From the NCBI RefSeq assembly GCF_023055435.1, contig NW_025964359.1, positions 62,001 through 126,000 on the forward strand: a DNA stretch of 64,000 nucleotides. The letters are read 5' to 3'. Made by a program: the position numbers and the translations under genes. Source of the DNA: Haliotis rufescens (taxonomy: Eukaryota). The notes beneath the pieces are model-generated. The model was not told the DNA's origin and did no database searches. It saw nothing but the letters and a program-made list of their open reading frames with translations. Shown here piece by piece: positions 10,100 to 44,640 of this stretch (positions are counted from its first letter, which is position 1; each line of letters begins with the position of its first letter).

Positions 10100-10570
10100 A
10101 GACAACCGGAGAAAGAAAGTTGAAAATATATCCTCTTCAAATGACAATCTAAACAATGACCAGAGAAAGGAATCTGAAAATATATCCTCTTTACGTGATA
10201 ATCATAAAAACAACAAAAGAAAAGAAGGGGAAAATGTGTCTTCTTCTGATGATAATCTGAAAAACAAGAGAAAGGCTAACGACCATATGTCTTCTTCAAA
10301 TGATAATCTGAATATCAAGAGGAAGGCTACTGGCCATGTGTCTTACTCAAATGATAATCTGAAAAAACAAGAGAAAGGCTAATGACCATGTGTCTTCTTC
10401 AAATGATAATCTGAAAAACAAGAGAAAGGCTAATGACCATGTGTCTTACTCAAATGATAATCTGAAAAAACAAGAGAAAGGCTAATGACCATGTGTCCTC
10501 TTCAAATGATAATCTGAAAAACAAGAGAAAGGCTAATGACTATGTGTCTTCTTTAAATGATAAAATGAAA
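10100..10570 (+). repeat. Coding tandem repeat, ~51-54 bp unit (DHVSSSNDNLKNKRKAN)
   Basis: Repeated GACCATGTGTCTTCTTCAAATGATAATCTGAAAAACAAGAGAAAGGCTAAT; some units have an extra A that shifts the frame. Confidence 0.9.
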
Positions 10571-14994: not shown

Positions 14995-15678
14995 TCGCCA
15001 CTGGAGACGGTCCCGGCGATGTCGTGGTGTCAGAATTGGCCCTCGGTGTGGCCTGTGACAGTGGAGGTTTCTGCTCGTCAATGTTCGACACACGATGTCC
15101 GCTCTAATGTGTCGCTGGTGAGTCCCCATGGTCTGTCGAGCAGTAACACAGCGAACTTGAAGATGCTGTCGCACAATCTGACGATCCTGACGTCGGGTGG
15201 TGACCCTTGATCTTCCACTACGTGGTCGGTCATCTGTAGTGTAGCCTGTATATGGTCCTTACGTAGGCTTTTGAAATGCATTGGCTACTTGCCGGGCGGT
15301 TTGTCCAGCTTGCAATCGTCCAAGGGCTTGGTGTAGCTGATTTCTTGTCAATCTTGGCATGTGGTAGCAATTCAGTAACTAATGAATGTTATCCGACCTG
15401 GGTGGATTTTTATAGGGCAAGAAATGGGGGAACGCATGTGAATTTCAATTTGCACGGAACTCACGTGCATCGGGTTACCATGGCCGTTGCCGTGATGCGT
15501 TTGGGCGATCGGTTTTAATGTCATCTGCTTTGTTTTTTTCCGGACAAATTTCAAATTTCATTTTTCCGGACAAGGTAATGTTAAATTTTAGAAACCTTGT
15601 CAAAAGTTATCCAGATATTTGAATGTAAACTCTTCATGCAATGTTACTTGGGGTGACGTTTCTTTTACGGTTCAGTAT
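14995..15678 (-). mobile_element. 5' fragment of the Tc1 family seen intact-length at 57510-59017
   Basis: TIR GGTGACGTTTCTTTTACGGTTCAGTA and HTH-coding sequence match the 57510 element. Confidence 0.85.
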
Positions 15679-18600
15679 ATTTCCCAGATGGATAAATTAC
15701 TGAAAGGTTATTGGCAGAATTGGGGATAATTAGAGTTAAAATACGATTAAATTGTTTGATAATTGTTCATGTAAGGATGTGCTCCTTGAGAGTCTTCGGA
15801 GAATCATGTGTTGGAATCACTCGATGGAGAAAATTCCAGAATATTAAATAACAAGGAAACCTATGTAGCGCAGTAATTGACATTGTCAGTCTCATTTGAA
15901 AGGATATACGTCGCGAAGAATAGTATTACACATGCTATATAATGTACAGATTACTCGGGGACTCCGCAATAGATAACGTACTGATTGCGGCGAGTGTAAT
16001 TCAAATAATGAATAATAAATAAAGCGACGAAACCCTTTCCATATCCAATAGAAATCTCTGTATAAAGCAGAGTCGGATGTTCAAAGTGTGTCTTAAGAGT
16101 GAAAATTATCTCAATTCAGAATTGAAAATAGACGTCGCTGTTGAAAGGGTGGTGTAAAATGGATTCAATGTGAAGAGGCGAGATGATGTTTAGTATATTA
16201 TTGATGTTCTCATCTTTCATAACGCTGTCAACGTGCATATCGACGCGGGAATTAGTTCAGATTGAAGACGAAGAATAAGATGAGTCCAAACGTCTTAAGT
16301 CGGTTATGAAAAAAACAAATGCGATTACTTATAGAAATCATTTGGTGATTCCTACTCTACTACAAGTCAAGTCCAGCAAGCAGGAACAGCCTTCGGAACA
16401 CCAGACTGTCATACCATACTGATCCAGACTGTCAAGCAAAACTGAATTCGTCACCACTCGCCCCTTTCCATCACCTGCAAGAAGACTCGTCCCCCTAACG
16501 ATGAATGTTATGTGCGAAAATACGACAAACCAATCAGAATGATTTCAAGTTCTTCGTCAAAGAATCTCTCAAAAATAATTTTTGATTTTACATATGTCTT
16601 GCATCTAAAAATATACCAAAGACACAGTTAAATGTGTTCAATCATACTGTATAATTCAGCACGTCCCGGTGTGCTTTAAATTGCATCTGAAATATATATA
16701 ATATATGGGGAAAATGTGTGAACCATTACGCAACGAGTTGAAAATTGTTTTAGGTATGCCCGTTTGAGCTAAGACGGAACCCGGTCGCAAAAATGGCCAC
16801 GAGAGGGGCACGAGTCGCTATTCGACTTGTCCCGGAATAACACGATTTGGTCACGAATGGCAAAACTGGTGCGTGCGTCAGTTTGAGCCAATCAGAAGGC
16901 AGGGTGCCCTTTGCGGATTTGTCAGACTTACTTCCGGGTTCAATGGATGAGTCTAAAGCGATATGCCTACAGTTTGTGCTGTTATCACTCGCAATATTCA
17001 TTACGTATTTCTAGGATCAGCTGTATACCTTTACAAAACCCATACGGTCGGGAGAAAAGTGGAAAAGGCGGATGAAGGGCTCACGATCAGTTCATCACCA
17101 TCTTCTACTACACCTACAAAGAGAATACTACACTCGTTCTAGTAAGATACCATTTTTACGAAACGAGTGGACTTTCTATGGTATCTGACCGAGCGAACTG
17201 AAACCGGTTTCAAAATCTGGTTGCGCATGAATATTGATATATGCCCAAATATGGGCATTGTTGATATTTCTATGCATATGAATTAACAACATGCGCCTGC
17301 AGTTGTGTTTGCAAACATAACAGCACCGACACTCAGGATCCTTCTTTGAAGAATTTCTGCAACTTATGGCAATTCAAGCGCCATGTTGTTAGTACGCTGG
17401 ACACCTATAAGAAACTTTGAAAATCACATTAGCGCCGCGCTTTGAATATGGGACCAACAGTCGGTCGCTCGCACGGACGGGGTCCCGGCTGGTTTCCTTG
17501 ATCTATCAGCTGAATTTATATCATGGCCGTGTCATATTTGAAGAGGGAAATCAGAATGTTCGCCAAAGACGTCCATGTTAACTGTACGACCCTATATTGA
17601 AGACGTGAAAATCAACAAACTCAAGTCTGCTTGCCTGTCAGTGACAGCTTCGAACGAAGGGCAAGGTCACCACCGGCATAAGAAAAGACAACTGTGATCT
17701 ACTCAAAGCGTTTTACGCTGGAGATAGGGAATGTTATCATTCACATTTGGGATAAATTTGGGCCACATAATCAGAAGTCAGGCACACTTCTAAGGAGTTT
17801 TCGAATAATTTGTATCGGAAATGTTCCCTTTGAGTGATCTGGTCGTGCAGTCGTGAACAAATAACTCCCGAAACAGCAAACAGTGCCATAAAATACGCTT
17901 CCAAGGGCCGGACACTGATGGCAGAATCGGATCATCCCAAGTAAGTCTAGATATCTGTCCAGATAGTTTAAACTGACTTTATTTCACCACGCTTATCCTT
18001 TTACGTTAAATCAAATTGAAAGTTGCGAAAGTGGTCGGGTGCGTCACGCTCATGGGGACCCTTGATCTATTGATCGGTAGGCTAGTCGTACATTGTAAAT
18101 GGATATACGAGCTATCCTATTTGGTTTAATAAAGTGTTTGTAAACACCTCTCGCTTTCATGAGATTGCTTCAGTTCTGACTTGTAGTTGCAAAATGAATG
18201 ATGTCTCGCAATTTGTTATGAATGAAAAAAGTAGTCCCGGTGTGACAGAGGTCACGGTTATCCAATCAAAACGAATAAAACTAGGTCAACCCTGTACGAC
18301 ACACGTGTGACGTACGGATTTAGTATCCTACCACCTGTATCTTCACCACGTGGGTAATACATGTACGTCTGCTCTTAGGTAAGAATTTTTCGACTTTTCG
18401 CACTTTTACGCAAATGTATATTCAATACGAGAAAATCACAAGTAGCAGATTTAGGATTTTGCACATGTTATAAACAAGGATAATGCTTGTAACAACAAAA
18501 TCATTTGCAAATATCGGTCATTGAGTTAGCACGCCATATAGCTGAAACGGGACACGCGTGACAGTCGTGACCTACTGTAACGAAATATGACAGTGATTTC

Positions 18601-20004: not shown

Positions 20005-20715
20005 GTAGGTATGTTAGATAAATAATAATAATACTAATGATAATAATAATGATAAAAAAATAATAATAATAATAATAATAATAAAAACAATAATAATGTA
20101 AAATGTGTGTAATAAAAGCGACAAACCCTAACCATATTCATAACAAAACTCTGCCAAAAGCAGAATCCACTGTACGATTTCGACTATATCATAAGCATGT
20201 GTTTATGAATTTCTATCAAATAGTGATGGCACCAGGTGTTCGCGAAAAGGTATCCGACCATATCATAATGTGGTGTGGTACATCAGGCACATTTTATCCA
20301 TGTCGGGAATCGAATCAAATCTTTCAGCGTGAGGAGCCAACGCATTATCCACTGTGTATAGAAATTATTAAAACGTCCTCAATGAAGTTTGAATGAAGGG
20401 AACAAATGGTTCAAAATTTTGAGTACGAGTGGGTTTTAACGTCAGGTCATTGTGTTTTCACATTCTAAATGTCTTTTTATATCTTAAGTATTTCAATTTA
20501 ACATGACTTAAGAACCTGATTATTATGTCGTGGGTATACTACATTACAATGGACATTCATGAAGTGAGTTGATGTTAATATCTTGTTTCTGTTTAAGCAA
20601 TTTGTATCACAAAAGATCAAACATGAAAGTCATGATACCAAACATGCCGAAGGGAAAGAAACTGTATTCCAATTTCCATTATCTTTACATATGATTAATA
20701 CTATTAATATTCCAG

Positions 20716-21957
20716 GTAATTCAGTACCTGACGGACAACTCAAGATTGAGAGTGTCGACAAAGCAGCATTCACAGCTGGATTTAACACGAACCTTTCTAA
20801 TGGCGACCATGATATTGATACAACCCAACCATTTAAGAACCCAGACTTGCGAAAGCTCAAAGATGATTCCATAACATCAAAGCTCGACCTAACAAATTCA
20901 ATCAAGGCGTTTGGAGAGGCAGAAAAACCAGCTAAACACATAAGTGATGAGAAGACAACCAATAACATTTCCTTTCATGATGGTCGTACGTCCTCTCCAA
21001 ATGGCAACCGAGATACGGCCACAGGGAAAGATGCTGATCAAACATCTTCTCCAAATGGTACACAAGATCGGGACACAGAAAAGAAAACTGATCACATGTC
21101 CTCTCCAAAAGGCAAACTAGAGGGGGACACGGGAAAAGAAGCTGATAACAGGTCCTCGGCAACTGACAAACCAGACAGTGACAAGGGAAAAGAAGCTGAT
21201 AACAGGTCCTCGCCCACTGACAAACCAGATAGTGACAAGAGAAAAGAAGCTGATAACAGGTACCCGCCCACTGACAAACCAGATAGTGACAAGAGTAAAG
21301 AAGCCGATAACAGGTCCCCGCCCACTGACAAACCAGATAGTGAAAAGGGAAAAGAATCTGATAACAGGTCCCCGCCCACTGACAAATCAGATAGTGAAAA
21401 GGGAAAAGAAGCTGACAACAGGTCCTCGTCCACTGACAAACCAGATAGTGACACAGGAAAGGAAGCTGATTACAAATTTTCTGCAATCGACAAACTAGAT
21501 AGGGACACGGGAAAGGAAGCTGATAACAGGTCCTCTCCAACTGACAAACCATATGGGGACGCCGGAAAGGGGGCTGATAACACATCCTCCTCAACTGACA
21601 AACTAAATAGGGACACAGGAAATAGAGCTGATCACACATCCTCTCCATCTGATCATCTCAAGCAACACCCAGGAACCAAAGATGATTTCATAAACCACAT
21701 GGGAAGGGTTGCTGATCAGATGACTTCAACAAATGGCAATGTCCAGGAAATACGTGGAAATACACCATCAATCATAAGAGCTAAAGATGAAGAATCGACA
21801 CAGAGAGGAGGTGTGCTATACATTCACGATGAGCCAACACAAGCTATGACTAAAAATAACAAACTAGTTTCGACTTTGAAGCCTGACATCAATGTGTCAT
21901 GCCCCCTGTGGCCACAAGAGGTCTTACGTAAACAGACTACGAGAGTGATGACTAAAG
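20716..21957 (+). CDS. Paralog B exon 2: Asp/Lys/Ser-rich tandem-repeat stalk
   Basis: Lies within open ORF 20583-21968; phase-1 acceptor TTCCAG|G at 20715 and donor AAAG|GTATAA; the end is homologous to paralog A. Confidence 0.75.
20990..21650 (+). repeat. Coding tandem repeat, 54-bp/18-aa unit (ADNRSSPTDKPDSDKGKE)
   Basis: About a dozen imperfect units visible in DNA and translation. Confidence 0.9.
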
Positions 21958-22392
21958 GTATAAACTAATGATTTACAAGAAGCTTAAGAGATTTTGCAGT
22001 TTACATCTGTACGTTCCATTGCAACAGTCAAAGTTGGTTCAAATCCCCTGATATTCAGCCAATAAGGTCACACATATTGATATTTTAAAAGTAATAAACT
22101 AAAAAGAATAATTGCGATTTTGTTGCGAATATCAGTTCTCCTACATACCTTTAGTGAATATCCGAGAGAGAGAAATTCGTAGTGTTGTTGCTTTAAGTGT
22201 TTGACAGGTCACCTTCTGTCTTAGCAATTTCGGCTGACCTGTCCCTCTTTGGGACTAATATGTCTGAGTAGGGTTCACATATCTATTGTGAGTTTGGTAT
22301 TCACATAATTTCTGTTTTTGCATTGATATGATTTCTATTTTCGTATATTGATATAATTTCATATTTATCTTTGGCTGCTCTGTTTATATACG

Positions 22393-31562: not shown

Positions 31563-31568
31563 GTAATC
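31563..31568 (+). repeat. Left 6-bp target-site duplication GTAATC
   Basis: Identical to 43475-43480. Confidence 0.95.
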
Positions 31569-32113
31569 AGTAGTAACGTACATCGGTAATGGACCACTCA
31601 GATTTCTGGGACCGCTCAGATTTCTGGGACCAAGATGGCGGCACATCCGTTTCCGGTCACGTGACCTGCGCAGTGCATGATGGGTACCTGCGCGCGCATG
31701 CAAGATGGCGTCGCATCCGTTTCCGGTGGCGCGCATGCAAGATGGCGTCGCATCCGTGTCCGGTGGCGCGCGCATGCAAGATGGCGTCGCATCCGTTTCC
31801 GGTGGCGTGCGCATGGAAAGAGGGCGTCGCTTCCGTTTCCGGGGAGGAGGAGGAGGGATAGGGGGAAAACCCGGAGGAGCGCCCGTACGAGGGGGAACAA
31901 GATCGACAGGGTTGTTGTTCTTGTGTTGTTCTAAAAATAGAAATAGACGTGGGGTGGTGGTGGGGGTGGTGAAGGGAGGGAGGGAGGGGAGGGAGGGAGG
32001 GGAGGGGAGGAGGGGTGGGTTCACGGTGTGGTGGGGGTGGGTGGGAGGGTCGTCAAAGCAAAGGAGGAAAAGCTGTCTTTCGGGAAAGATGGGTGGCCCT
32101 GAAAAGGGCCGTT
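31569..32113 (+). repeat. Left terminal inverted repeat (545 bp)
   Basis: Reverse complement of 42921-43474 apart from a few substitutions and ~9 nt of indels in the G-tract. Confidence 0.95.
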
Positions 32114-32115
32114 GG
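32090..32115 (-). terminator. Histone-type 3' stem-loop #1 (CCAAC GGCCCT TTTC AGGGCC ACCCA), followed by GAAAGACAG
   Basis: 6-bp stem, TTTC loop and ACCCA tail; ~110 nt downstream of the zinc-knuckle stop, same strand. Confidence 0.9.
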
Positions 32116-32224
32116 AAAACAAACTGGAAACTGGAAACTGGAAACGGCAGGAACACTGGAACACTGGAAAAACTGCAAACGATGGGAAACGGGTAAAAAC
32201 AGTGGGGGCAGCATGACCCATGCG

Positions 32225-32851
32225 TTAGTCACTTTGTTCAGAGGATCTCACTTCTCCATCCTCTACTTCCATCTCATCCTCGGACGGAAGGTGTCGTCGG
32301 CGCTTTGAAACGTGTTTTCGTGAGGGGGACCTGTTCCGTTTTCTTTTCTCTAGACGAGGTGTGATGCCTACCCGGAGTTGTGTGAGACATTCTTTTAGGT
32401 CGAGGACATCGGAATGCATGTCTTCGATGAGATGAAGCACTTGTGCCACGGGTGTCACGGGTGTCACGGGGGCCACGGGGGTCACGGTTGCCACGGATGC
32501 CACGGGTGTCGACGTGGACGGTGTTGCTAACGTTTTCTTTCGACTGGGTTCTGGACAATCTGCAGCGAAATGACCCAGGGCTCCACAGTTGTAACAGCGG
32601 TCCAGGCGATGGGGAGTCTTCTTTCGACGGGGTTCTGGGCAATCTGCAGCGAAATGACCCAGGGCTTCACAGTTGTAACAGGGGCCCTGGTACTGCTTCT
32701 CCTGCTTCTCCTGCTTCTCTTGACTGTTCAGCTTCGGACAGACATAGTGACGGTGACCTTGAGTGTGGCACTCGGTACATGTCACTTCAGGGCAGTACAG
32801 GTAACTGTGACTGTCGGTCTGGCACATCCTACAACTGTATCGAGCTGACAT
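32225..32851 (-). CDS. Four-CCHC zinc-knuckle protein (208 aa) with basic NLS and C-terminal EDGEV motif
   Basis: Four Cx2Cx4Hx4C motifs; start placed at CCATC-ATG-TCA (32851), downstream of the TATA box at 32901-32910 (alternative ATG 32863). The ORF-track extension to 33208 runs through promoter DNA. Confidence 0.85.
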   Translation of the reverse strand: MSARYSCRMCQTDSHSYLYCPEVTCTECHTQGHRHYVCPKLNSQEKQEKQEKQYQGPCYNCEALGHFAADCPEPRRKKTPHRLDRCYNCGALGHFAADCPEPSRKKTLATPSTSTPVASVATVTPVAPVTPVTPVAQVLHLIEDMHSDVLDLKECLTQLRVGITPRLEKRKRNRSPSRKHVSKRRRHLPSEDEMEVEDGEVRSSEQSD

Positions 32852-32900
32852 GATGGGTTTCATAGAATGCAGTGTGTGTGAGTGGCTTCGCTCTTGTTTT

Positions 32901-33165
32901 GTTTTTATAGGAGAGGCACTGACACCCTGCTTCCTGATTGGTTCCCCAGGCAGCGCCCCCGATTGGTTCGTTCCGGGGCCTGGCCCGCACCTCGGTTTTC
33001 CAAAACGGACCGACCCCTGTGTTTCTTTTCCATAGGAAATGGATTTTACCATGGGAGAGAAAGCACAACCCCGGTTCGGCCAATCAGAGCCCCGCCCGGT
33101 CCGAGCGCCGCTTCTGATTGGTCGACCACCCAGGCTTCGGATTGGTCCGATTTCGATCCGGTTTT
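32901..33165 (-). promoter_or_regulatory. Repeated multi-CCAAT + TATA promoter, copy A
   Basis: Several CCAAT/ATTGG boxes and CTATAAAA; homologous to copies B-D. Confidence 0.8.
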
Positions 33166-33400
33166 TATCGGGGTGTGCATTTCGATCCTGTTTTGTTTTT
33201 TTCTTCATCCTACAGACAACATAACACGACTATGCGTTTTTAACAAAAAATTTAATCCCCCTGATCACATGAACCAACACCACAAAACAAAAGTCACAGG
33301 ATGAGGGGGGACATCCCTGTGATTTTTGTGAACACGAGGGAGGGGTGACCGCGAGGGTAGGAACGTCTGACCACTTTGAAAAAAAAACAAAAAAACGTTG

Positions 33401-33931
33401 TCACTTGGGGTGAACAAGACACTCGACTCTTCGTTTCCGTGCTTCTTGGGACACCAAACGTCTGTATTTTTCGTTCACTTCTCCATCAGGACAAAACACA
33501 CACAAGTATTCGCAGGGGACTTTGGCATGCTTCAGATGTTCTTTCCAGGGTTGGTCTGTGGCTTCCCATTGGCGGAGTGCCACACCGCAGCAATAACAGG
33601 TCACACAGTCCCCTCGTCCTGGATAGAAATAGCCAGCCATGGCCATGTCATAAGGGGTCTGGGTCATCTGTTGAGGCCACGTTTTAAAAGACCTCAGACG
33701 TTCTTGAAATGAATCATAGTGGGGATGAGAAGGTTGACACAAGGTGTAAGAAGGAAAAGGTCTCTCCAGAACGTCACCGAGTCGACACCTGTCGTCCATC
33801 AAGAGTGTGTCGTCCATCAAGAGTGAACGTTTTCTCGCTTCTTGTTCTCTCGCCTTTTCAGACACCCACTCGGAATCGGTGACGACATCTCGGGAGGATG
33901 ACATGGCATTCATAGAACGTCTTTGCTCCAT
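33401..33931 (-). CDS. Single-BIR inhibitor-of-apoptosis-like protein 1 (176 aa)
   Basis: ERLRSFKTWP...AMAGYFY...VTCYCCG..LRQWE..DQPWKEH...PCEYL BIR signature; no RING; upstream duplicated CATAAAAG boxes (~33975, ~34027). Confidence 0.92.
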   Translation of the reverse strand: MEQRRSMNAMSSSRDVVTDSEWVSEKAREQEARKRSLLMDDTLLMDDRCRLGDVLERPFPSYTLCQPSHPHYDSFQERLRSFKTWPQQMTQTPYDMAMAGYFYPGRGDCVTCYCCGVALRQWEATDQPWKEHLKHAKVPCEYLCVFCPDGEVNEKYRRLVSQEARKRRVECLVHPK

Positions 33932-34771
33932 GATGACGGTGACTTCACTGAAAGAAGGTCTGAGGGTTCGCCTGCTTTTATGAAACTCTCCACCCTACAC
34001 CCTTCAACGGAAGGTCATGACTTTAGCTTTTATGAAACTCTCCACCTCCTCCATCTCCTCACGTGACGTCATCCTGTGTTTGGGTTGACGGACACACGGC
34101 ATGATCCATGACATGATCCATGACATGGATATGACATGGCACACGGGGAGGGGTGTGGGGATGGATGCGTCCTGGAATGACTGACACCAGGCAGCTGATC
34201 TTTCAAGCATGGCCTTTCTCTTTTATCTATTTTTATTTTAATGTTACACTTTGGTGTGCACTGACATGACAGAGGCACAGACAGACAGACGGACAAACAA
34301 CATCGACGACATCTCAACTCAACCTCTACCCTCGGTTCGGCACTCTATTGGAGTTGAGATCAATCAAGACACAAAGAGTCAGTTCAATCAATCACTGTTT
34401 AATCATGAAAAAACCAATCACAACCGGATACAATGGAAATACGAAAAGTCATTGGAGGAGGGAGTGCTTTGCATGTCCCTACAACCACCACAACAACAAC
34501 AACAACAATAACGCGACAACGTTTTCCTCTTCCATCTTCAAGCTCTTCCATCTTCAAGTCCCTAAGAGGTGGTCCTCCCTCAAACCTGTGAGAGGCCCAA
34601 CCGTTCAACACGTACAGTCTATGGCCTCCCTGAAACAGACATGACACATCACTTGATCACGGTTGCAGCTGGCGTGTTGACAAAGTTCTTCGAGTGAAGA
34701 GGAGGATCACCATAAGATGTGATCCTCAGATGCGATAGGCATGTCATCATGTGTCACTATGCTGTCATAGG

Positions 34772-35816
34772 TCAACATACTATGAGCTCCAGCTCACAGG
34801 CATGACACATCACTTGCCCGCTGTTGCAACTGATGTATCTTAACATGTTGTTGTGTCGGCAAACACGACATTCGCGTTGTAGGGGAGTGAGTTGAGCTTC
34901 TCCATAAGGATCCAGGTCAACGTTGTCATCATCATCATCGTCGCAAACCATGGGCGTACCTGTGGAGTAGACATGAACCTCTTCCGGGGATGCTGGTGAC
35001 CAAGAAGCCTCGAGCAGGGGAAGCGTGTCCAGATCCATGGAAGGGAGAGTGGCCACCTTGAGCGCTTCATGATCATCGAGGTCACCCGTCGCCATCGTCA
35101 CAGGGGCATTCGGTGAATAGATGGGCTCCCGAGGGGTTTGTTCCCACCACTGTTCTAGCACGGACTGGGCTGAACTGACATCAGGGGTCCTGTCAATCAT
35201 AAGGACAGAGTCCATTTAGGATAGGCATAGGTCATGCATATGAATCACATCAAGAATGACTGAGACAAAGAAGAGCAGGGTACTTACAGTTGTTCTTGAG
35301 GAGAGATCTTCAGAGATAATTTCTTCCGTGATCGTCTTTTTGCAGGCGTTGCAGGTGTGGCAGGTTTCAAAAAGGATGTCCCCCTCGTGTCGATGTCTGT
35401 TGTCGCCGCAGTCGTGGTTGCTGTGGCTGCTGTGGTGGTGGTGGTGGTGGGGACTGGCGCTGTGGGGGTGGGGGTGGGGTGGGGGTGGGGGGTGTTGCCG
35501 TTGCTGTGGGGGTCACCACGGCTGTGGGTTTGCGTGTCTTTTTCTTCTGGATCTTCTTGATCGTCTTCTTCGATGTGCCTTTCTCGGGTTCAGTCAGCTT
35601 CCTCATCTTTGAACGTATCTGGTCGCACATCAGGTTGTCGCCCTTCGCACGTAACTTGGCGTACGCGTCGTCGGTCTTCATCTTTAAACACAGCAAGTCG
35701 TACACTTCACCCCACAGTTCAGCAGTCATGTTACCGTTCCCCTCTCCACTGCTTCCTTGGCCACTCATGTCGCTTCGTGTCTTGTCATTCAACCGTTTCG
35801 ACATGTTGTTCGACAT
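34772..35816 (-). CDS. Predicted two-exon protein (~315 aa): basic/Thr-rich N-part, acidic MVCDDDDDD, C-terminal Cys4 zinc finger; one frameshift
   Basis: Intron 35287-35190 (GTAAGT...GACAG, 98 nt) joins KKLSLKISPQEQL to TPDVSSAQ in frame; one missing base in the G-run at ~35476-35479 links this frame to ORF 35367-35816. Confidence 0.65.
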
Positions 35817-36029
35817 GATGTTGTCCGGATGTTCTGTTCGTTGTTGTTGTTGTTGTTGTTTCTTTCCAAGTCTTCACGGAGGTACGTCAACACTTGATGG
35901 TACTCTCTCCAAACACGCGTTTCTTCCAGATAAAACGCCAACAACCAACACAACGTGAGGAACATCAATCAGAGGGGACGATGTTGTTGCTTGGTCCGTT
36001 CAGTGAAAAGTGATGACCGGAGAGCGTCG

Positions 36030-36265
36030 GTCGTATTAAAAGCCACGGAGGTCCTGCTTTCTGATTGGCCCGTTCCGATGTCTGACTTTCACCTTGGTTT
36101 TCCAAACTGGACCGACCCTTGTGTTTCTTTTCCATAGGGTTAGGCTTGTAGCGTGAGAGAGAAAGCACAACCTCGGTTCGACCAATCAGAGGCCACCCTC
36201 GCCCGAGCGCGGCCTCTGATTGGTCGATCATCCAGGCTTCGGATTGGTCCGATTTCGATCCGTTT
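36030..36265 (-). promoter_or_regulatory. Repeated multi-CCAAT promoter, copy B (more diverged, TTTTAATA box)
   Basis: Homologous to copies A, C and D; upstream of ATG 35816. Confidence 0.75.
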
Positions 36266-36318
36266 TTTTCTGTAGGGATCCATGTCGATTCAGTTTCGAT
36301 CCGCTGTCATGAAAAATT

Positions 36319-39300
36319 TTAGTGAAAGTCGTCTCTGTACCCAAAGGGGAGCGTGTCTACAGGTAGCCCTGTGATGTCGTCGTAGACGAGACGTCGCTTG
36401 TCGTACACGGTACGATAGTCTTTTCGGGTGGGTCGGGTCACGAGTGCGTTTTCGTGCCGAGGGCCTTTTCGAATGATCTGATGAGGGTAATCCAAACTGA
36501 TTTTCTCCTCCTCTTTCCCAGGCCGTTGTCCCAGTATCAGTCCTTTCATGGTGTCAAAGTTGAGATGGCGTTGGTTTCGGTAATTCAAAGTGAACCCTCG
36601 CACTTTGCAGGTCGTGCGCGTTCCATCGGGTCTGGGGTTCATTAACTCGTAGCCATAGTTTTTGGGGCCTCCCGACACAAACGTCTTGATGGTGTTTCCG
36701 TCCAGTTCATCCGTAAACTCACCCAACGAATGACCCAGCTCTGGATTCGCGTCGTGGGGTCGATGAATGTAAATGACGCTGTCCGTGTCAAAGTACAACA
36801 CCCTGTGGTCCACCAGGGCAAGGGTCTCGTACAGCTTGAGACGTGCTTGGGCGGTGACCCAAGCAGCGATGGCGACGTTGAAATGAGAATGAGGGGTTTG
36901 GAATTCTTTCTGCTTGGTATAGGTCACTTCCACCATGTGTTCGTTGACAACGACCACATCCTCGATGGTATTGCGTTCATCCCTCCACAAGGCAAAGTAC
37001 TGTACAGTATCGTTCATATACACGTTCTGACTGTAGTCTACCCGTTGCCCAAACTTGCCCCAGAGCGAATTCAGTTGCATCTTGGCAATCGTGCGACGTC
37101 CTGGATTTTTTTCGATGCGGTCCTTGTCCAACCCAATGCCTTCTTTGTCGTAGATCTCCTGGATGTACGCGTTGTGATCCGTACATCCTTCGGGGTATCC
37201 GCTGGCTTCGAGCTTCTCCTTGAAATGTCGATCGATGTAAGTGTCAAAGAGTCCCACTTGCTGGGTGTCGGGGTCATGCTGTGCAAAGGTGTCAAAATGC
37301 CAAACGTCGTAGATCTGAAGCACCCGGTAGTCATACTTCTTCACGGCTTCCTGGAGTTCTACGGTGGCGTACGTCCCCACCCATGACCTCTCTTCGTCCG
37401 TGTGCTCGCAGGGGGAGTCTGACCGGGTATCGGCACACGTGCGGCACAAAGGACAGAGCAGTTTGCCACCCGATCTGTAAGGCAGTAGCGGATGGTAAAG
37501 TCGTTTCGGGGGTAGGACACGGCATTGGATCAGGCCTTTCAGTTCAAACAACGTGTCCACAGGGGGTTGATGGAGAAGGGTCGGGTGTCCCGTGGGAAAC
37601 GCTCCGGTCTTACAAATGTAGGGATAAAGGGAACAAATATCGATGTACTTGATGGTTTCACCTTCTTGGGCTTCGTAGCATAATCGCGTCGCATTGGTGC
37701 GTCCTCCATAGAAGGCATCGCGAGGGTTGAGCGGCCCGGGGACGTGGATACAGCGGGGTCCCTGCAAGAAAGCATGCAGTGCGGAGTCCTCCCGTTGCAT
37801 TTTCGTAAACTCGTGCTCCCACAGGGTGACGATCCGTTTCACCTCAGGGTGTTGACTCAAGAGACTCAAGCGGTAGTGGGTGTCGGTGTAACGGGCTCCC
37901 AACGACGAGCCCAGGACGGGATGCGGTTCTCCACGTCGGGTCTTGTGACAGACCTGGCACCCATGCCAGAAACAGCCCAGGAATTCGTAGACGGTGCCTG
38001 TCGCTGGATCGTAGCCATCCACGGTGTACCGATGTTGACCCCCTCCACACGTGAACTCTTTTTCACCGCCATTCCTAGCGTGCTGGAGGTGCAGATGGGG
38101 GTGCGTTTCCATCAGATAGTGGAGCCAGTGCATACAGGCCTGGGAATAGTTTCTCTTGGGTTGGTAGCCTTGAGATGGGAGAATGGCGATGGTATTGGGT
38201 TTCAGGTCGTGTTTTCGGAAGGATTTGATGGTGAACGCTGCAGCTGTCATCACTTCCACAAAGGGATCCATGCCCACCGAGTGGATGGCGTTCTGTCGGA
38301 AGTCGGCGCATCCCCGTCTCAAAATGTCCACATCGCTTTGGCAGTAGGTTAAAAGTTCTCCTTGTAAGTCGAACAAGGCTCCTTCTTGCACTTTTTGGGT
38401 ATGCCACTGGAGGAAGGCTGTGCGTTCCGCGGGAGACATGCCATCGGGATCGTACGTGACGGCTGGTGGATAGGGACCTCTGTAGGTTTGGTTGACTCTC
38501 GTATTAAAAAAGTGTGGAAAGTACCCTTTCTTCATTTCTTTCAGCCCAAAGCTCTTGGGAAAGGCTTTCAGGGGGTAAGGGATGAAATTTAAGCTGTCTT
38601 CGAAACATAACCGTCCCAGGGTCATTTGCAAAATTTGTTGGTCATGGCGAATCTTGGTGGGGAGTGTCACCAGGAGGGGGGACAGACCCTTCAGGACTAA
38701 GTGTAAATCATAGGATCGTGCATTATGGGCCATCACATAAATGCGATCCTCCTTCGTGACTGTATGGCAGGAGGTGTTCTTGTTCTTTGGCTTCTTTGTT
38801 TTCTCCACTTCCATGACCTCTTCCCCCTCTTCCCCCTCTTCCATCTCCTCCCCCTCTTCCCCCAACTCCTCCCCCTCCTGCTGGGGTGATGCCTGTCGTT
38901 TGGAAGTGTGCTTTCTTGAGGGGGTGTCATCCCGTTTTCTTTTTTTCCCCAGGTGAGCTGTCGTCCCCTTGCGTGTGCTGCCCTCCTCTTCCTCTGGGTG
39001 GGGCTTCTTCTTGGGTATTTCAGACAACGTGGTCAACCACACACACACATCATGTCGCGTGGTGGGGCCTCGAAACACGATCTCACGGCTGGGACCATAC
39101 CCTTCTTCTCTCCATGGACAGTGTTCGCACAAGTTCTTGCTCACTTCACTGATGCATCGTCCACATCCTAGTTGCACCACGCACAAATTTGGAATGTGTT
39201 CCCCCGTGTCTTGCATGCATTCAAAATCGTAGAAGGCGTATTGAACATGGTCTCGTAGGGGATGTTGTTCCTCTTCCCCCTCCTCCTCCTTCTCCGCTTC

Positions 39301-39795
39301 CTCCCCCTCCTCCCCCTCCTCCCCTTCCTCCTCCTCGTTTTCTTCACGGAGAGGCGTCATGTAACAGCGATGATCTGGGGTCATGGGTTCTCGGCACACA
39401 AAGCAGGGATGTTCTTCATCGAAGCACGCGTGGTGAGCCATGGGGGTCTCCAAGACGCGGACCAACTGAAAACAGTTCGGGCACCTGTGAATCGATTGAC
39501 AGGCGCTGGGTTTTCCCTCTGACGGTGACTGGAGATGCCGGGTGTAACACATTGGATTGGGGAACCAACCTTGACATGTCAAGCAAGGGATCCCGTGCTC
39601 TTCCTGGGGTCCGCAATAACTAGAGTAGAAGCAGCGGTAACAGCGGTATTCCTTGGTGCAGGGATGTTTTTCGGGATGGTCGTAACGTTTGTCACAGCGT
39701 TTGCAGTAATGGTTAGAGCCATAAAAAGCGGGCATGGAAGTGATGATCATGATGGTAGAGATGCAGCACGGTGGCGTGGGGTGGAGTCTCATCAC
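36319..39795 (-). CDS. polB: Protein-primed family B DNA polymerase, main part (Cys-rich region, exonuclease, Vsr-like insertion, polymerase)
   Basis: ExoI FYDFEC, ExoII AHNARSYD, ExoIII YCQSDV, YGGRT, motif A DICSLYP, motif B KMQLNSLWGKF, motif C YFDTDS, GPKNY; VDGYD..VYEFLGCFWHGC insertion. Confidence 0.95.
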   Translation of the reverse strand: MMRLHPTPPCCISTIMIITSMPAFYGSNHYCKRCDKRYDHPEKHPCTKEYRCYRCFYSSYCGPQEEHGIPCLTCQGWFPNPMCYTRHLQSPSEGKPSACQSIHRCPNCFQLVRVLETPMAHHACFDEEHPCFVCREPMTPDHRCYMTPLREENEEEEGEEGEEGEEAEKEEEGEEEQHPLRDHVQYAFYDFECMQDTGEHIPNLCVVQLGCGRCISEVSKNLCEHCPWREEGYGPSREIVFRGPTTRHDVCVWLTTLSEIPKKKPHPEEEEGSTRKGTTAHLGKKRKRDDTPSRKHTSKRQASPQQEGEELGEEGEEMEEGEEGEEVMEVEKTKKPKNKNTSCHTVTKEDRIYVMAHNARSYDLHLVLKGLSPLLVTLPTKIRHDQQILQMTLGRLCFEDSLNFIPYPLKAFPKSFGLKEMKKGYFPHFFNTRVNQTYRGPYPPAVTYDPDGMSPAERTAFLQWHTQKVQEGALFDLQGELLTYCQSDVDILRRGCADFRQNAIHSVGMDPFVEVMTAAAFTIKSFRKHDLKPNTIAILPSQGYQPKRNYSQACMHWLHYLMETHPHLHLQHARNGGEKEFTCGGGQHRYTVDGYDPATGTVYEFLGCFWHGCQVCHKTRRGEPHPVLGSSLGARYTDTHYRLSLLSQHPEVKRIVTLWEHEFTKMQREDSALHAFLQGPRCIHVPGPLNPRDAFYGGRTNATRLCYEAQEGETIKYIDICSLYPYICKTGAFPTGHPTLLHQPPVDTLFELKGLIQCRVLPPKRLYHPLLPYRSGGKLLCPLCRTCADTRSDSPCEHTDEERSWVGTYATVELQEAVKKYDYRVLQIYDVWHFDTFAQHDPDTQQVGLFDTYIDRHFKEKLEASGYPEGCTDHNAYIQEIYDKEGIGLDKDRIEKNPGRRTIAKMQLNSLWGKFGQRVDYSQNVYMNDTVQYFALWRDERNTIEDVVVVNEHMVEVTYTKQKEFQTPHSHFNVAIAAWVTAQARLKLYETLALVDHRVLYFDTDSVIYIHRPHDANPELGHSLGEFTDELDGNTIKTFVSGGPKNYGYELMNPRPDGTRTTCKVRGFTLNYRNQRHLNFDTMKGLILGQRPGKEEEKISLDYPHQIIRKGPRHENALVTRPTRKDYRTVYDKRRLVYDDITGLPVDTLPFGYRDDFH

Positions 39796-40573
39796 ACTTG
39801 TACAACAGTCTCTGACCCACCTCTTGACTGTAGACTTTCAGTTGATAATGCAGACGGGTCAAGGCTCGTCCCACGCGTGCGAGGTCGTCCAGACCCCGAC
39901 AGGGGCCTTCGGGCAGGCCAAGGCTTCGAAACAAGGCCCGTGCCCGTATGCCTTGAACGTCGACGCGATCCGTTCTCGTCAGTCTCTTTCGCTGGGCGGT
40001 CCATGCTGGGGTCAGAGGGTGAGGCTTGTGGGCATAATGCTGTGCCACCACCAGGGCCCGTCCCAAACAGGATTGATCTTCGTTCTTGATCCGTACGATG
40101 CACTTTTTGCGTGTTAAAAAAGCTTCGAGTCCAATCACGTTTTTCAGCCGGGGAGCACCACTGCCCGATCCTACCCTGTCGGGATCTGCGACGTGTACTA
40201 AGGTCACATCCATGGTGGCATCGATGTTCAGGTCTTTGTTGGACTGTTGGACTTTTTCCACGGCTTGCAAAATAGTTAGCCCATGGAGATCTTCAAAACG
40301 TCGAAAGGGTATCCGTATGGGTGTGTTCAAAGCGGGATGATCGATACCTAGACCAATACGATCTCCCTTCTGACCTGATATCTGTTCATAAAAGTCATCG
40401 ATCACCCTGTCAAATAAAGCTGGCAGTTCCATGGGGACGCGTTCCGGTGGTACGGTGTTCAAGTAGTCTGGGTTGAAAGTCAAACAATAGGTATGATTAG
40501 CAGTTCTTAACCGTCTGGAGCGGGTGATATCTTTCCTCTCCAAACGATAGGGCGTACTTTGGTTGCTCGTCAT
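39713..40573 (-). CDS. N-terminal part of pPolB (terminal-protein-like region + OTU-like protease), frameshifted from the main ORF
   Basis: IKNEDQSCLGRALVVA (Cys) and LHLYHHDHHF (His) resemble the vOTU catalytic motifs of Polinton pPolB; overlaps the downstream ORF at the expected junction. Confidence 0.8.
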   Translation of the reverse strand: MTSNQSTPYRLERKDITRSRRLRTANHTYCLTFNPDYLNTVPPERVPMELPALFDRVIDDFYEQISGQKGDRIGLGIDHPALNTPIRIPFRRFEDLHGLTILQAVEKVQQSNKDLNIDATMDVTLVHVADPDRVGSGSGAPRLKNVIGLEAFLTRKKCIVRIKNEDQSCLGRALVVAQHYAHKPHPLTPAWTAQRKRLTRTDRVDVQGIRARALFRSLGLPEGPCRGLDDLARVGRALTRLHYQLKVYSQEVGQRLLYKCDETPPHATVLHLYHHDHHFHARFLWL

Positions 40574-40654
40574 GATAACGATGTGTATCTGATGAACGTC
40601 TGTACTCTAAGAGGTGCTGAACGTCTGAGGGATGGACAACCCTTCCCCAAAACA

Positions 40655-40940
40655 GGATCGAAATCGGACCAATCCGAAGCCTGGATGGCCGACCAATCAG
40701 AAGACAGCACCGACCAATCAGAAGACAGCACCCGAACCGAGTTGTGCTTTCTCTCCCATGGTAAAATCCATTTCCTATGGAAAAGAAACACAAGGGTCGG
40801 GTCGTTTTAGAAAACCGAGGTGCGGACCAGGCCCCGGAACGAACCAATCGGTGCGCTGCGTTTTGGACCAACCAGGAAGCAGTGAGTTTCGATCCGGTTC
40901 TTCCCCTATAAAACAAGCGTGGATTCGAGTGGGTCAGTGT
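40655..40940 (+). promoter_or_regulatory. Repeated multi-CCAAT + TATA + Inr promoter, copy C (between divergent pPolB and BIR2)
   Basis: Four CCAAT boxes, TATAAAA at 40907-40913, TCAGT initiator at 40934-40938. Confidence 0.85.
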
Positions 40941-40962
40941 ATGTTACATAAAATCATCTAGA

Positions 40963-41421
40963 ATGGCTGAAACAAAGAAGAGTGGTACGACGACGACAAC
41001 GCGTGGCGAAGATGCGGTGATGGATAGTGCAGAACCTCGTGAATGCTGGAGTAAGAGTCATGCCGAGGAGGCGGTGTCACTGCTCAGTCAAACACCATCG
41101 CACTATTATCTACGCTTTGAAAGAAGGCTCGCTTCGTTTGAGACGTGGCCCACGCAAATGTATCAGACTGCTGAAGAGATGGCCCATGCGGGCTTTGTCT
41201 ACACTCAGGGTGCCGATGGGGTGTGCTGTTTCCAATGTGGGGTGCGGCTGAGACAATGGGCACCCCACGACGATCCTTGGGCGGCACATCACAAGTGGTC
41301 CCCAGACTGCGACTACCTCAAGCTAACCGGGTTGGTGAAACACCAGAAGAAGCTACAACTGCACTATCTCTGCGAAGAGAAACAGAGGTACACGAATGAC
41401 GTAGCACGGCCGGCTGCCTAG
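40963..41421 (+). CDS. Single-BIR inhibitor-of-apoptosis-like protein 2 (152 aa)
   Basis: RRLASFETWP...MAHAGFVY...CFQC-x16-H-x6-C canonical BIR; no RING. Confidence 0.93.
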   Translation: MAETKKSGTTTTTRGEDAVMDSAEPRECWSKSHAEEAVSLLSQTPSHYYLRFERRLASFETWPTQMYQTAEEMAHAGFVYTQGADGVCCFQCGVRLRQWAPHDDPWAAHHKWSPDCDYLKLTGLVKHQKKLQLHYLCEEKQRYTNDVARPAA

Positions 41422-41534
41422 GTTTCCCGTGTCCTGCGTACCCGTTCAAGTTCCCGTTCAAGTTCCTGTTCAAATGTTTTTCTTTTCTTGGTTGGACCCA
41501 CAAGTGGACAGCAGCAGAAAAGTTTTTCTTCCCC

Positions 41535-41560
41535 AAAACGGCCCTTTTCAGGGCCACCCA
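41535..41560 (+). terminator. Histone-type 3' stem-loop #2 (AAAAC GGCCCT TTTC AGGGCC ACCCA), followed by AAAAGACAA
   Basis: Perfect 16-nt hairpin at 41540-41555, ~118 nt after the BIR2 stop; outside the TIRs. Confidence 0.92.
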
Positions 41561-42235
41561 TCTCACCCAAAAGACAACTTTCTTCCTTTGCTTTGCTAAA
41601 CCCTCTGCCCCTCCAAAACAAAGAACCCACATCCTCCCCCTAGACCTCTTGGAGGCACACGTCTAAAAATACAATACATAGATATAAATAGATATTAATA
41701 GAGTTAGATCCATAGATCCATAGAGACACGTAGTACACCGCGTCAAACATCACGTGTGCATGAACACACGCGTCACAGTACGCCTGTCGACCTACACGAG
41801 TGTCAACACCTCGGTATCCTTAAATAATAATAATAATTTGAAAACACACACGTACAGGGTACGACGTTTGCATGGCAACACACAGTACAACCATGACGTT
41901 CACATCGCGACACGAAGTGCATGACGCGTGCAAACGTCACGCAGGTGTATCGATTTTTCTCTATTCATCTCACTACGACACGACTCGATACACACACACA
42001 CAGGACACCACGTTTTGACTGACCACACGTTATTCTATGCATCAACGTCAACGTCTGTTTGAAGACATACACACACACACACGCACACATGACATTCCGA
42101 TTGGCATGGGAGTGACACCACGTACATCGCGTAGGCATTCCCACGTTCATGTCTACCTATGAAGGTCCACCTTCCTTTAGCATTCAGACGACCGTCTACC
42201 TCAAAAAATATCAAGGCTACCCAAGAAGAAAAAAA

Positions 42236-42520
42236 ACGGATCGAAATCGGACCAATCCGAAGCCTGGATGGTCGACCAATCAGAAGCGGCGCTCGGACCA
42301 GACGGGGCTCTGATTGGTCGAACCGGGGTTGTGCTTTCTCTCCCATGGTAAAATCCATTTCCTCTGGAAAAGAAACACAGGGGTCGGTCCGTTTTGGAAA
42401 ACCGAGGTGCAGGCCAGGCCCCGGAACGAACCAATCGGAGCTGCGGGCTGGCGAACCAACCGGGAGGCAGGGTGTCAGTGTCTCTCCTATAAAACAAGCG
42501 TGGATTCGAGTGGGTCAGTG
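42236..42520 (+). promoter_or_regulatory. Repeated multi-CCAAT + TATA + Inr promoter, copy D
   Basis: Four CCAAT/ATTGG boxes, TATAAAA at 42488-42494, TCAGT at 42515-42519. Confidence 0.85.
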
Positions 42521-42553
42521 TCACTTGTAAAAATTGATTGAAAAGAAAGCATC

Positions 42554-42913
42554 ATGATGAGTATCAACAACAACAGCAACAACAACAACAGCACCAGCAA
42601 CAACTACCCCCTGAAAGAAAACTGGGATTTAGAGATTGCTACAGTGGCACAACCTTTGCCCGGGTGTAAAGAAACATTACCATCACCACCACCACCATGG
42701 TCTCCAGCGTGGCAATGTGCCCGGTGCCATGGGGGCCTGCCCGTCTATGCCCTTGGTACAAGGGTACGGGATGGGACTTTCGAGTGCGTCTACTGTAAGA
42801 CCATCCTCAAGGACACCTACGTGCGTCGGTTAACGCACACCAGTAGGTGTCCTGTGAGGAGACAGATGAAAGTCCACCCGTGCCTTTGTACCATGGGATG
42901 CACAACCATGTGA
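42554..42913 (+). CDS. Small Cys-rich zinc-ribbon-like protein (119 aa), function unknown
   Basis: CARC-x19-CVYC; sits exactly between promoter copy D and stem-loop #3; GCATC-ATG start context. Confidence 0.75.
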   Translation: MMSINNNSNNNNSTSNNYPLKENWDLEIATVAQPLPGCKETLPSPPPPWSPAWQCARCHGGLPVYALGTRVRDGTFECVYCKTILKDTYVRRLTHTSRCPVRRQMKVHPCLCTMGCTTM

Positions 42914-42918
42914 GCATC

Positions 42919-42944
42919 AAAACGGCCCTTTTCAGGGCCACCCA
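42919..42944 (+). terminator. Histone-type 3' stem-loop #3 (AAAAC GGCCCT TTTC AGGGCC ACCCA), followed by GAAAGACAG
   Basis: Hairpin at 42924-42939, 10 nt after the stop at 42913; forms the inner edge of the right TIR. Confidence 0.9.
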
Positions 42945-43474
42945 TCTCTCCCGAAAGACAGCTTTTCCTCCTTTGCTTTGACGAGCCTCCCACCCCCACC
43001 CCCCACCACACCGTGAACCCACCCCTCCTCCCCTCCCCTCCCCCTCCCTCCCTCCCCTCCCTCCCTCCCTTCACCACCCCCACCACCACCCCACGTCTAT
43101 TTCTATTTTTAGAACAACACAAGAACAACAACCCTGTCGATCTTGTTCCCCCTCGTACGGGCGCTTCTCCGGGTTTTCCCCCTATCCCTCCTCCTCCTCC
43201 CCGGAAACGGAAGCGACGCCCTCTTTCCATGCGCACGCCACCGGACACGGATGCGACGCCATCTTGCATGCGCGCGCCACCGGACACGGATGCGACGCCA
43301 TCTTGCATGCGCGCCACCGGAAACGGATGCGACGCCATCTTGCATGCGCGCGCAGGTACCCATCATGCACTGCGCAGGTCACGTGACCGGAAACGGATGT
43401 GCCGCCATCTTGGTCCCAGAAATCTGAGCGGTCCCAGAAATCTGAGTGGTCCATTACCGATGTACGTTACTACT
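42921..43474 (-). repeat. Right terminal inverted repeat (554 bp)
   Basis: Reverse complement of 31569-32113; ends ...TTACTACT. Confidence 0.95.
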
Positions 43475-43480
43475 GTAATC
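43475..43480 (+). repeat. Right 6-bp target-site duplication GTAATC
   Basis: Identical to 31563-31568. Confidence 0.95.
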
Positions 43481-43639: not shown

Positions 43640-44640
43640 CTGATGGCACACAAGTTCAGTAGCGTGTATGGCCACCATGTGCGTTGACAACTGCCACACA
43701 ACGCCTCCGCATGGACCTTGTGATGCTTGTGAACACATGATTGGGAAGACGACGCCATTGTTGCTGCAAAATGGTGCCAAGAACTTGCAAATTCTGTGGT
43801 TGGTTCTGGAGAGTGCGCAGACTTCTGCCAAGAGCATCCCAGACGTGTTCGATGGGATTGAGGCCGGGAGACCTTGACGGCCAGTCCATGACGTTGACTC
43901 CCGCTTTCTGAAGGAAATTCCTTTGCAAAATTGCTGTGTGGGGTCTGGCATTGTCGTGTTGGAAGATCAAACCGGGTCCATGTGCTGCCATAAAAGGCAG
44001 AAGTTCTTGTGCCAGTGAGTGAGTGAGTGAGTTATTATTTAACGTCACATGGGCAATATTTCAGCCATATCGTGACGAGTCTTGTGCCAGTACCTGGTCG
44101 CGGTAAGCAGCAGCGTTGAGGTTGCCACGGATGACAAGAAGCCTGGAACGTGCATTGCCACAAAAAGCACCCCAACCCATGACACTTCCGCCTCGAAATC
44201 TGTCAACTTCCTGTACACAACACTGGGTGTAACGTTCATGACGGCGCCTCCACACCCTCGCCCTACCATCAGCAAATCGAAGATTAAATCGGGATTCATC
44301 ACTGAAGACGACTTGATTCCAATTCCTCTGAGTCCATCGTAAATGTCGCTGTGCCCACAATTGACGTTGACGTCTGTGTAATTGAATCAGAATTGAATCA
44401 GTATGGCTGAAAACACGTGCGGTATTATGGCCACGTGACCAGTTGCACGTGAAAAAACACTTTTGCCACTAAAGTGCTGTGCACATGATTTTGATCGATT
44501 CACCTGCACAAAAAAGGGTGTTATCTGAAGACAATACGTGTCCATTACTGTTTAAATACACAATAAGGGCCCACAATGATAACTGGTCAAAATGTTAAAA
44601 TTTTAGGATTGTGAAGTTTTTAATTTGGTTCGGTATATAT
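43640..44640 (-). mobile_element. Internally deleted Tc1-like element with a nested SINE tail
   Basis: FSDESRF, QHDNARPH and SPGLNPIEHVW; (GAGT)n insert at ~44016-44079 flanked by duplicated TCTTGTGCCAGT. Confidence 0.85.

Follow-up and report, generated by a model that had tools for sequence, protein, structure and literature searches.

Histone-type 3′ end signals and a late-arising ARS2-motif-like peptide in a probable Polinton derivative of Haliotis rufescens

A multicopy element of 11.9 kb in the genome of Haliotis rufescens carries histone-type 3′ signals behind non-histone genes, and the presence of these signals on its apoptosis-inhibitor and RNA-binding genes is well supported by sequence comparison, whatever the role of a short ARS2-recruitment-like peptide, EDGEV, in the zinc-knuckle protein encoded by its left-terminal gene. 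The element occupies positions 31569-43474 of the window, by which we mean the whole 64-kb stretch of DNA that was analysed (Table 1). The first-pass annotation had proposed that EDGEV makes the knuckle protein an adaptor that recruits or decoys ARS2, in keeping with the histone-type 3′ ends. Judged from the copies of the gene compared here, the peptide is a late gain in the lineage of the newest insertion burst, and ARS2 binding is, on the same evidence, not the core function of the knuckle-protein family; most likely, EDGEV rose by drift or hitch-hiking.

Table 1. Features of the element and of its knuckle gene, by position in the window.
Feature	Position	Strand	Basis or remark
Left terminal inverted repeat, AGTAGT end	31569..32113	+	Repeat comparison
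Histone 3′ stem-loop, ACCCA, AAAGA at +15, 114 nt past knuckle-gene stop	32070..32115	-	RF00032, 38.2 bits
CCHC zinc-knuckle gene, 208 aa	32225..32851	-	Translation, Pfam; alternative ATG 32863
EDGEV, ARS2-recruitment-motif-like 5-mer, residues 197-201	32249..32263	-	Translation
Basic NLS-like stretch, residues 169-186	32294..32347	-	Paralogous to insert in the element's polymerase
Knuckles 3-4, internal duplication, 90.7% nt identity	32555..32680	-	Repeat and Pfam comparison
Knuckles 1-2, closely spaced (linker of 4 residues), alignable with the knuckles of yeast Air2	32738..32833	-	2lli, E=1.2e-5
Promoter module, CCAAT boxes and TATAAA	32903..33169	-	Fourfold in element
BIR (IAP-domain) gene 1, 176 aa	33401..33931	-	Without stem-loop; ATTAAA downstream at 33256
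ORF, 147 aa, acidic, C-terminal cysteines	34772..35215	-	No family match
ORF, 149 aa, behind promoter-module copy 36060-36296	35367..35816	-	No family match
Protein-primed DNA polymerase B	36319..40573	-	PF03175, E=7.7e-35
BIR gene 2, 152 aa; preceded by promoter module 40649-40940	40963..41421	+	Pfam
Histone 3′ stem-loop after BIR gene 2	41535..41580	+	RF00032, 36.8 bits
Cys-rich ORF, 119 aa; preceded by promoter module 42228-42494	42554..42913	+	No family match
Histone 3′ stem-loop within right inverted repeat, after Cys-rich ORF	42919..42964	+	RF00032, 35.3 bits
Right terminal inverted repeat	42921..43474	-	Repeat comparison

The element is best read as an integrase-less derivative of the Polinton/Maverick (pPolB) family, in which the knuckle gene is an accessory gene. 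Its terminal inverted repeats, 440 nt at 99% identity or 553 nt at 97.5% when the stem-loop is included, are flanked by a 6-bp target duplication, GTAATC (31563-31568 and 43475-43480), and AGTAGT ends together with a 6-bp target duplication are Polinton hallmarks. The polymerase is read in two overlapping frames in the window copy (39713-40573 and 36319-39792), whereas several others have it as one frame, about 1,420-1,460 aa long; many dispersed copies exist in the genome, with end-to-end copies measuring about 11.5-12.4 kb. The Atlas cluster nearest to this pPolB is mainly from Mollusca, and a comparison of the polymerase with IMG/VR returned no relative. Among the element ORFs scanned, no rve match indicated a retroviral-like integrase, and neither Pfam nor PHROGs, the latter without any match to the element's proteins, identified a capsid, packaging ATPase or protease. 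In the window element and nine loci of other copies, tblastn found neither the integrase nor the capsid-like ORF of the Polintons resident in the same genome, and pPolB1 had no match there either. Since no integrase was found, we class the element as a Polinton derivative and not as a full member. The co-resident Polintons have an integrase, a capsid-like ORF and an ATPase (149 ATPase matches among 150 candidates scored); the five ATPase-bearing regions examined share the AGTAGTA ends of the element and contain no histone stem-loop and no similarity to its polymerase. We infer that the element is integrated in trans by these integrase-bearing Polintons.

Several further features of the element were recorded. 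The inverted repeats contain, at 31590-31860 and 43180-43450, four repeats of 37-39 nt with CGCCATCTTG and CCGGAA words, which we take to resemble YY1 and ETS/GABP sites. Their outer 25 nt vary between young copies, yet both ends within a copy agree, which suggests that the ends are homogenised at replication. A single CCAAT module lies between the divergent N-terminal frame of the polymerase and BIR gene 2, so placed that 40574-40960 looks like a bidirectional promoter. The polymerase also contains two E/G-rich tracts of 9-nt repeats (38780-38960 and 39250-39350), one of which follows the NLS common to the knuckle protein and varies among copies.

The histone-type 3′ ends mentioned in the first-pass annotation were recovered at three sites, all above the Rfam RF00032 gathering score of 34 bits and within the 34-39 bits that host histone genes reach. 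All three are 16-nt stem-loops with conserved flanks that lie on the sense strand shortly after stop codons, and each of the genes concerned (knuckle gene, BIR gene 2 and Cys-rich ORF) stands behind a copy of the CCAAT/TATA promoter module. Relative to the host stem, one T-A pair is exchanged for C-G, while the 5′ flank and the ACC(C/A)A sequence agree, and the downstream AAAGA lies at +15 as against +14 in host histone genes. The element's 22-nt signal has 278 exact copies in the genome, compared with 0 for a reversed control. Behind the knuckle gene, where the corresponding region was found in 70 of 73 copies, the stem-loop is exact in 47/70 and canonical in 53/70, and it is kept across old and young copies. 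No AATAAA or ATTAAA occurs within 400 nt after the three stem-loops. Two of the signals belong to the extended inverted repeat, so that both terminal genes are read outward and stop there.

The terminal stem-loops could instead be viewed as DNA structures of the inverted repeats and not as mRNA signals, with the knuckle protein acting mainly as a nucleocapsid-like DNA or nucleic-acid chaperone for element replication or packaging. Such a reading would draw on the two stem-loops inside the extended inverted repeat, on the retroviral nucleocapsids found among the best PDB sequence matches of the knuckle protein, and on the NLS module common to this protein and the polymerase. However, one of the three stem-loops lies in the interior of the element, behind a BIR gene; every one of them comes after a stop codon on the sense strand; and the 5′ flank, ACC(C/A)A and the AAAGA spacing (+15 vs +14) match host histone genes, apart from a T-A to C-G pair exchange in the stem. 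We consider this reading very unlikely. We favour the interpretation as mRNA signals, under which the knuckle-gene transcript would be cut by the host SLBP/U7 snRNP machinery, leaving no poly(A). U7 snRNA acts in such cleavage by pairing with a purine-rich element downstream, and the best Rfam match for a host U7 snRNA reached 27.5 bits, below the cut-off of 34. The stretch is also matched by 9 small-RNA reads and by contigs of three runs presumed to be RNA, from which neither transcription, strand and ends nor the motif state of the organisms concerned can be read.

The host core-histone repeat (L154, G000:C251:22000-27000) is a 4.1-kb quartet of H3, H4, H2A and H2B, tandem on many small contigs, and the stretch read contains no H1. 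Mimicry of histone promoters was considered and is kept as no more than a lead: out of 105 promoter 9-mers of the element, the histone spacers share 3, a number that does not stand out from those of 48 control stretches. The word GGATCGAAA occurs 7 times in the element (33151-33188, 36253-36302, 40655-40895 and 42238-42246), 8 times in the 64-kb window and once in the host H2A-H2B spacer (L154:2847-2855), an occurrence also found in 7/200 shuffles.

Translation and Pfam agree with the first-pass description of the knuckle gene as a frame with four CCHC knuckles, a Thr/Pro linker, an NLS and a terminal EDGEV. The knuckles are of the CX2CX4HX4C form (C7-C20, C25-C38, C58-C71 and C86-C99; zf-CCHC, E=1.2e-13), their number differs from copy to copy of the element, and a T/P/V linker lies C-terminal to them. 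The protein ends in DEMEVEDGEVRSSEQSD, and the final letters of the acidic tail after the NLS are EDGEVRSSEQSD. The frame is open farther upstream, giving 327 aa if counted from 33208; because a TATAAA lies 58 nt ahead of 32851, this position or the ATG at 32863 is the likely start. The NLS-like stretch is 59% identical to the polymerase insert over 27 aa (E=1e-4), and at the DNA level the pair scores 109 against a maximum of 84 in 500 shuffles; on this comparison, NLS and acidic tail are a module common to the knuckle protein and the polymerase. An AlphaFold model built from a six-sequence alignment has a mean pLDDT of 48 and a pTM of 0.17, with residues 174-208 below 50. The short amphipathic helix postulated in the first-pass annotation reappears in this model at H134-173, though at low confidence (pLDDT 65-77 across 131-160), and is thus weakly indicated.

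Outside the knuckles, the protein is known from Haliotis only. All named homologues are from this genus, as are all those extending beyond the knuckles; among 1.84 billion representatives, the C-terminal half found only two proteins, both from Haliotis, besides a pair of weak matches confined to the T/P linker, and the Atlas search for distant relatives gave scores no higher than 0.76-0.77. Sequence matches in the PDB align residues 7-101 with Air2 (E=1.2e-5) and residues 55-102 with nucleocapsids. These last matches, together with a protein-level constraint that does not reach statistical significance, are what would favour regarding the gene as a retrotransposon Gag fragment or another passive passenger. 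We regard this as extremely improbable, given that no capsid, protease or RT frame adjoins, that the gene has its own copy of the element promoter module and its own 3′ signal, that its place at the terminus is unchanged over copies whose identity ranges from 99% to about 82%, and that its frame is open in 40 of the 73 copies examined. None of the 1.84 billion representatives is a Gag sharing the C-terminal half. The first-pass proposal that the protein is element-encoded was upheld, and the Gag alternative that it had itself named was discarded. The retained cysteines and histidines and the open frames suggest a protein-wide constraint; a test for purifying selection was not significant (27N/16S between groups vs 245N/99S private, p=0.29).

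EDGEV is the sole [ED][ED]GE[ILV] match in the six frames of the window and lies in the acidic, predicted disordered tail beside the NLS. As the first-pass annotation had stated, it agrees with the published ARS2-recruitment consensus, (E/D)(D/E)GE(L/I/V) (10.1101/2023.07.25.550453, PMC9402713), a class curated as ELM LIG_ARS2_EDGEI_1 (PMC10767929). Such motifs bind the ARS2 zinc finger, with partners binding in a mutually exclusive manner (PMC9402713), and their affinities of 0.16-9 uM depend on context, tandem motifs binding tighter among the degradative factors (10.1101/2023.07.25.550453). In FLASH, the corresponding FARB is DELEEGEIRSDSE, and an equally acidic scrambled peptide is reported not to bind (PMC5923425). 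The tail scores 35 (BLOSUM) against the FARB, compared with 21 for an acidic-tail homologue, and exceeds 99.95% of its own shuffles, as only 25 of 50,000 score as high. Abalone ARS2 has a conserved zinc finger that keeps the lysines (AKDKW...KKFKG), and it has the basic binding patch. Abalone ARS2 (P0014) itself has a DDGEI in an acidic loop, at residues about 337-341. Given the published tolerance of the ARS2 site, we think it fairly probable that the natural GEV tail peptide would bind ARS2 in vitro, and its affinity in the test tube may well be micromolar. By chance, the 5-mer appears in 0.12% of whole-protein shuffles, 0.56% of shuffles of the last 20 residues and 0.5% of local shuffles, the chance that some ORF of the element holds it is 7.4%, and 12 of 120 acidic ARS2 homologues, scattered across taxa, contain one.

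The distribution of the motif was read from 73 loci, including the window copy and possibly a few assembly duplicates, of which 70 come from the 178 matches, many of them partial, of a genome search with the knuckle protein (the 30 best and 40 lower-ranked ones reaching the C-terminus) and 3 from a DNA search. The tail reads EDGEV in 16 copies, EDGED in two (L016 and L047), ENGEV in one (the related copy L015), and is acidic without G-E in 54. Conservation in homologues, by which the first-pass proposal could be judged, was largely lacking, as the motif is absent from 57/73 copies and from 24 of the 40 with an open frame; nor is it tied to the histone-type 3′ ends, because copies without it still carry the stem-loop. 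EDGEV is present in 12/12 copies of the youngest clade, which have different flanks and are hence separate insertions, and in 4/61 of the others. Identity within this clade is 99.2%, as against 95.2, 93.1 and 89.9% within older groups. In midpoint-rooted trees of 67 copies, with six short ones left out, the GEV copies are nested deep within a series of successively branching acidic-tail copies, and they remain so when the motif is masked in 59/67 rows; 15 of them make up a single group, beneath which the other two join an unresolved node. The motif is missing from the polymerase insert paralogous to the tail in each of the four copies of the polymerase that were read (window, L103, L105 and L108), and under the midpoint root the branch lengths and this paralogue concur on the direction of change. 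The nesting, the motif-free paralogue and the stem-loops behind motif-free genes together identify the motif as a late gain, and indicate that the stem-loop system predates the motif and is independent of it. From the poor conservation of the motif and the motif-free paralogous insert we further conclude that ARS2 binding would not be what the family as a whole is for.

Whether this gain was selected is the principal alternative to be weighed. In the youngest clade alone, the newest subfamily may have evolved a FLASH-like ARS2 motif in two steps, with element RNA on the knuckles and the tail in the ARS2 zinc-finger site; the cap-binding complex would then be channelled into U7-dependent processing, or ZFC3H1, ZC3H18 and ZC3H4 would be kept off and element transcripts spared exosome-coupled termination. 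Between mid-age and young copies the tail underwent three changes, two of which are exactly those completing the motif (chance near 0.1-0.3% by a hand estimate). Together with the EDGED intermediates, the FARB-like flanks and a pathway in common with the cis signals, since EDGEV points to the same pathway as the histone stem-loops, this argues for selection, as do the presence of the motif in all of the independently inserted young copies, the conserved host surface and the competition of motif-bearing effectors for one ARS2 site (PMC9402713, 10.1101/2023.07.25.550453). On the other hand, the 12 young copies are near-identical and so represent one event, not twelve; older subfamilies with stem-loops and without the motif spread widely, the related copy L015 has ENGEV, and no tandem motifs occur in the tail. 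Selected mimicry is thus possible but, in our judgement, rather unlikely. Drift or hitch-hiking remains the preferred account because the tail has no excess of amino-acid change (3/19 codons vs 17/160, p=0.45), some ORF of this acid-rich element would hold the 5-mer by chance in 7.4% of cases, 12 of 120 ARS2 homologues have one, and the young copies count once. The last coding exon of host ARS2 is followed, at a distance of about 4 kb, by an older, shortened copy of the element without a knuckle gene (exons to 10615028; copy from L107:8460 to L108:5286, G000:C1, about 10618960-10625800), a proximity that is probably due to chance.

Taken together, these observations lead us to hold, with moderate confidence, that the knuckle protein is a small nuclear binder of single-stranded nucleic acid. 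Besides its knuckles, it combines an NLS with an acidic tail and with an amphipathic helix through which it may oligomerise. It would be produced in S phase from a histone-like, non-polyadenylated mRNA, the histone-type 3′ end tying element expression to that phase, and its knuckles would bind single-stranded RNA or DNA, including element or host RNA, in the service of element RNA handling or replication. The EDGEV sequence would have arisen late within the acidic tract, and in the youngest lineage the tail may also contact ARS2. A broader proposal, that the element mimics the host replication-dependent histone programme in cis through its 3′ ends and, in its newest lineage, in trans through the ARS2 motif, appears unlikely to us.

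It is generally accepted that only replication-dependent histone mRNAs undergo histone-type 3′ processing. Among the papers listed by the literature searches, in a collection with few subscription papers and no Repbase, no title or opening of an abstract gave a description of Polinton/Maverick, viral or transposon genes with a histone stem-loop, nor of the combination of a Polinton derivative, knuckles, an ARS2 motif and a histone signal. Each component is of a known kind, be it the Polinton derivative, the CCHC knuckles, the curated motif or the curated RNA signal; what appears to be new, and is sturdier than the ARS2 motif, is a self-replicating element with predicted histone-type 3′ signals on non-histone genes. 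Such signals could time expression to S phase and bring SLBP-driven export and translation, and poly(A)-linked surveillance might be evaded. A functional motif would represent a short host-interaction motif born in an acidic tract through two point changes, with intermediates kept in the genome, and natural alleles would suffice to test for selection on it. A motif without function would serve as a caution that this 5-mer arises readily in acidic tails. Should mimicry both in cis and in trans hold, a mobile-element mimic of the ARS2 motif would have been caught arising, with before and after alleles in one genome.

Elsewhere in the window, a 1,583-aa single-exon host ORF at 51993-56744 (-) gave a weak Schlafen/AlbA_2 hint (E=0.018), and host ORFs of 51- and 54-nt tandem repeats (9636-11439 and 20691-21968, +) had no Pfam match. 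Tc1/mariner transposase remnants lie at 43656-43991 (-), 57565-58346 and 14998-15683, and the Polinton derivative is inserted beside or into one of them.

Among known systems, the element is like Polintons/Mavericks in its AGTAGT ends and 6-bp target duplication, and it contains an insert that we take, judging by eye from its motif, to be VSR-like. It differs from them in that no integrase, capsid, ATPase or protease was found in it, and in having two BIR genes, a knuckle gene and three histone 3′ signals. With the mollusc pPolB2 Polintons of Jeong et al., whose alignment includes a Haliotis rufescens pPolB2, it shares a pPolB (PF03175) and long inverted repeats, and at 11.9 kb it is shorter than the 13-25 kb given there for Polintons (10.1101/2023.08.22.554363). 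Its knuckle protein has CX2CX4HX4C arrays in common with Air1/Air2-ZCCHC7, CNBP/GLH-type proteins and retroviral nucleocapsids; this likeness to Air2, CNBP and nucleocapsids is limited to the knuckles, the C-terminal half having no relative outside Haliotis, and does not imply orthology. The tail matches the [ED][ED]GE[ILV] pattern and the acidic, disordered setting of the LIG_ARS2_EDGEI_1 class (FLASH FARB, ZFC3H1/Red1, ZC3H18, ZC3H4, NCBP3 and PHAX), and EVEDGEVRS of the element aligns to ELEEGEIRS of the FLASH FARB (PMC5923425). Unlike the members of that class, the candidate motif is a single copy at the extreme C-terminus, is not conserved in its own family and belongs to a mobile element. 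The element's stem-loops equal host histone 3′ ends in score (35-38 vs 34-39 bits), flanks and, nearly, spacing, and differ from them in standing on non-histone genes of a mobile element, in one stem pair and in an AAAGA that lies one base farther downstream.
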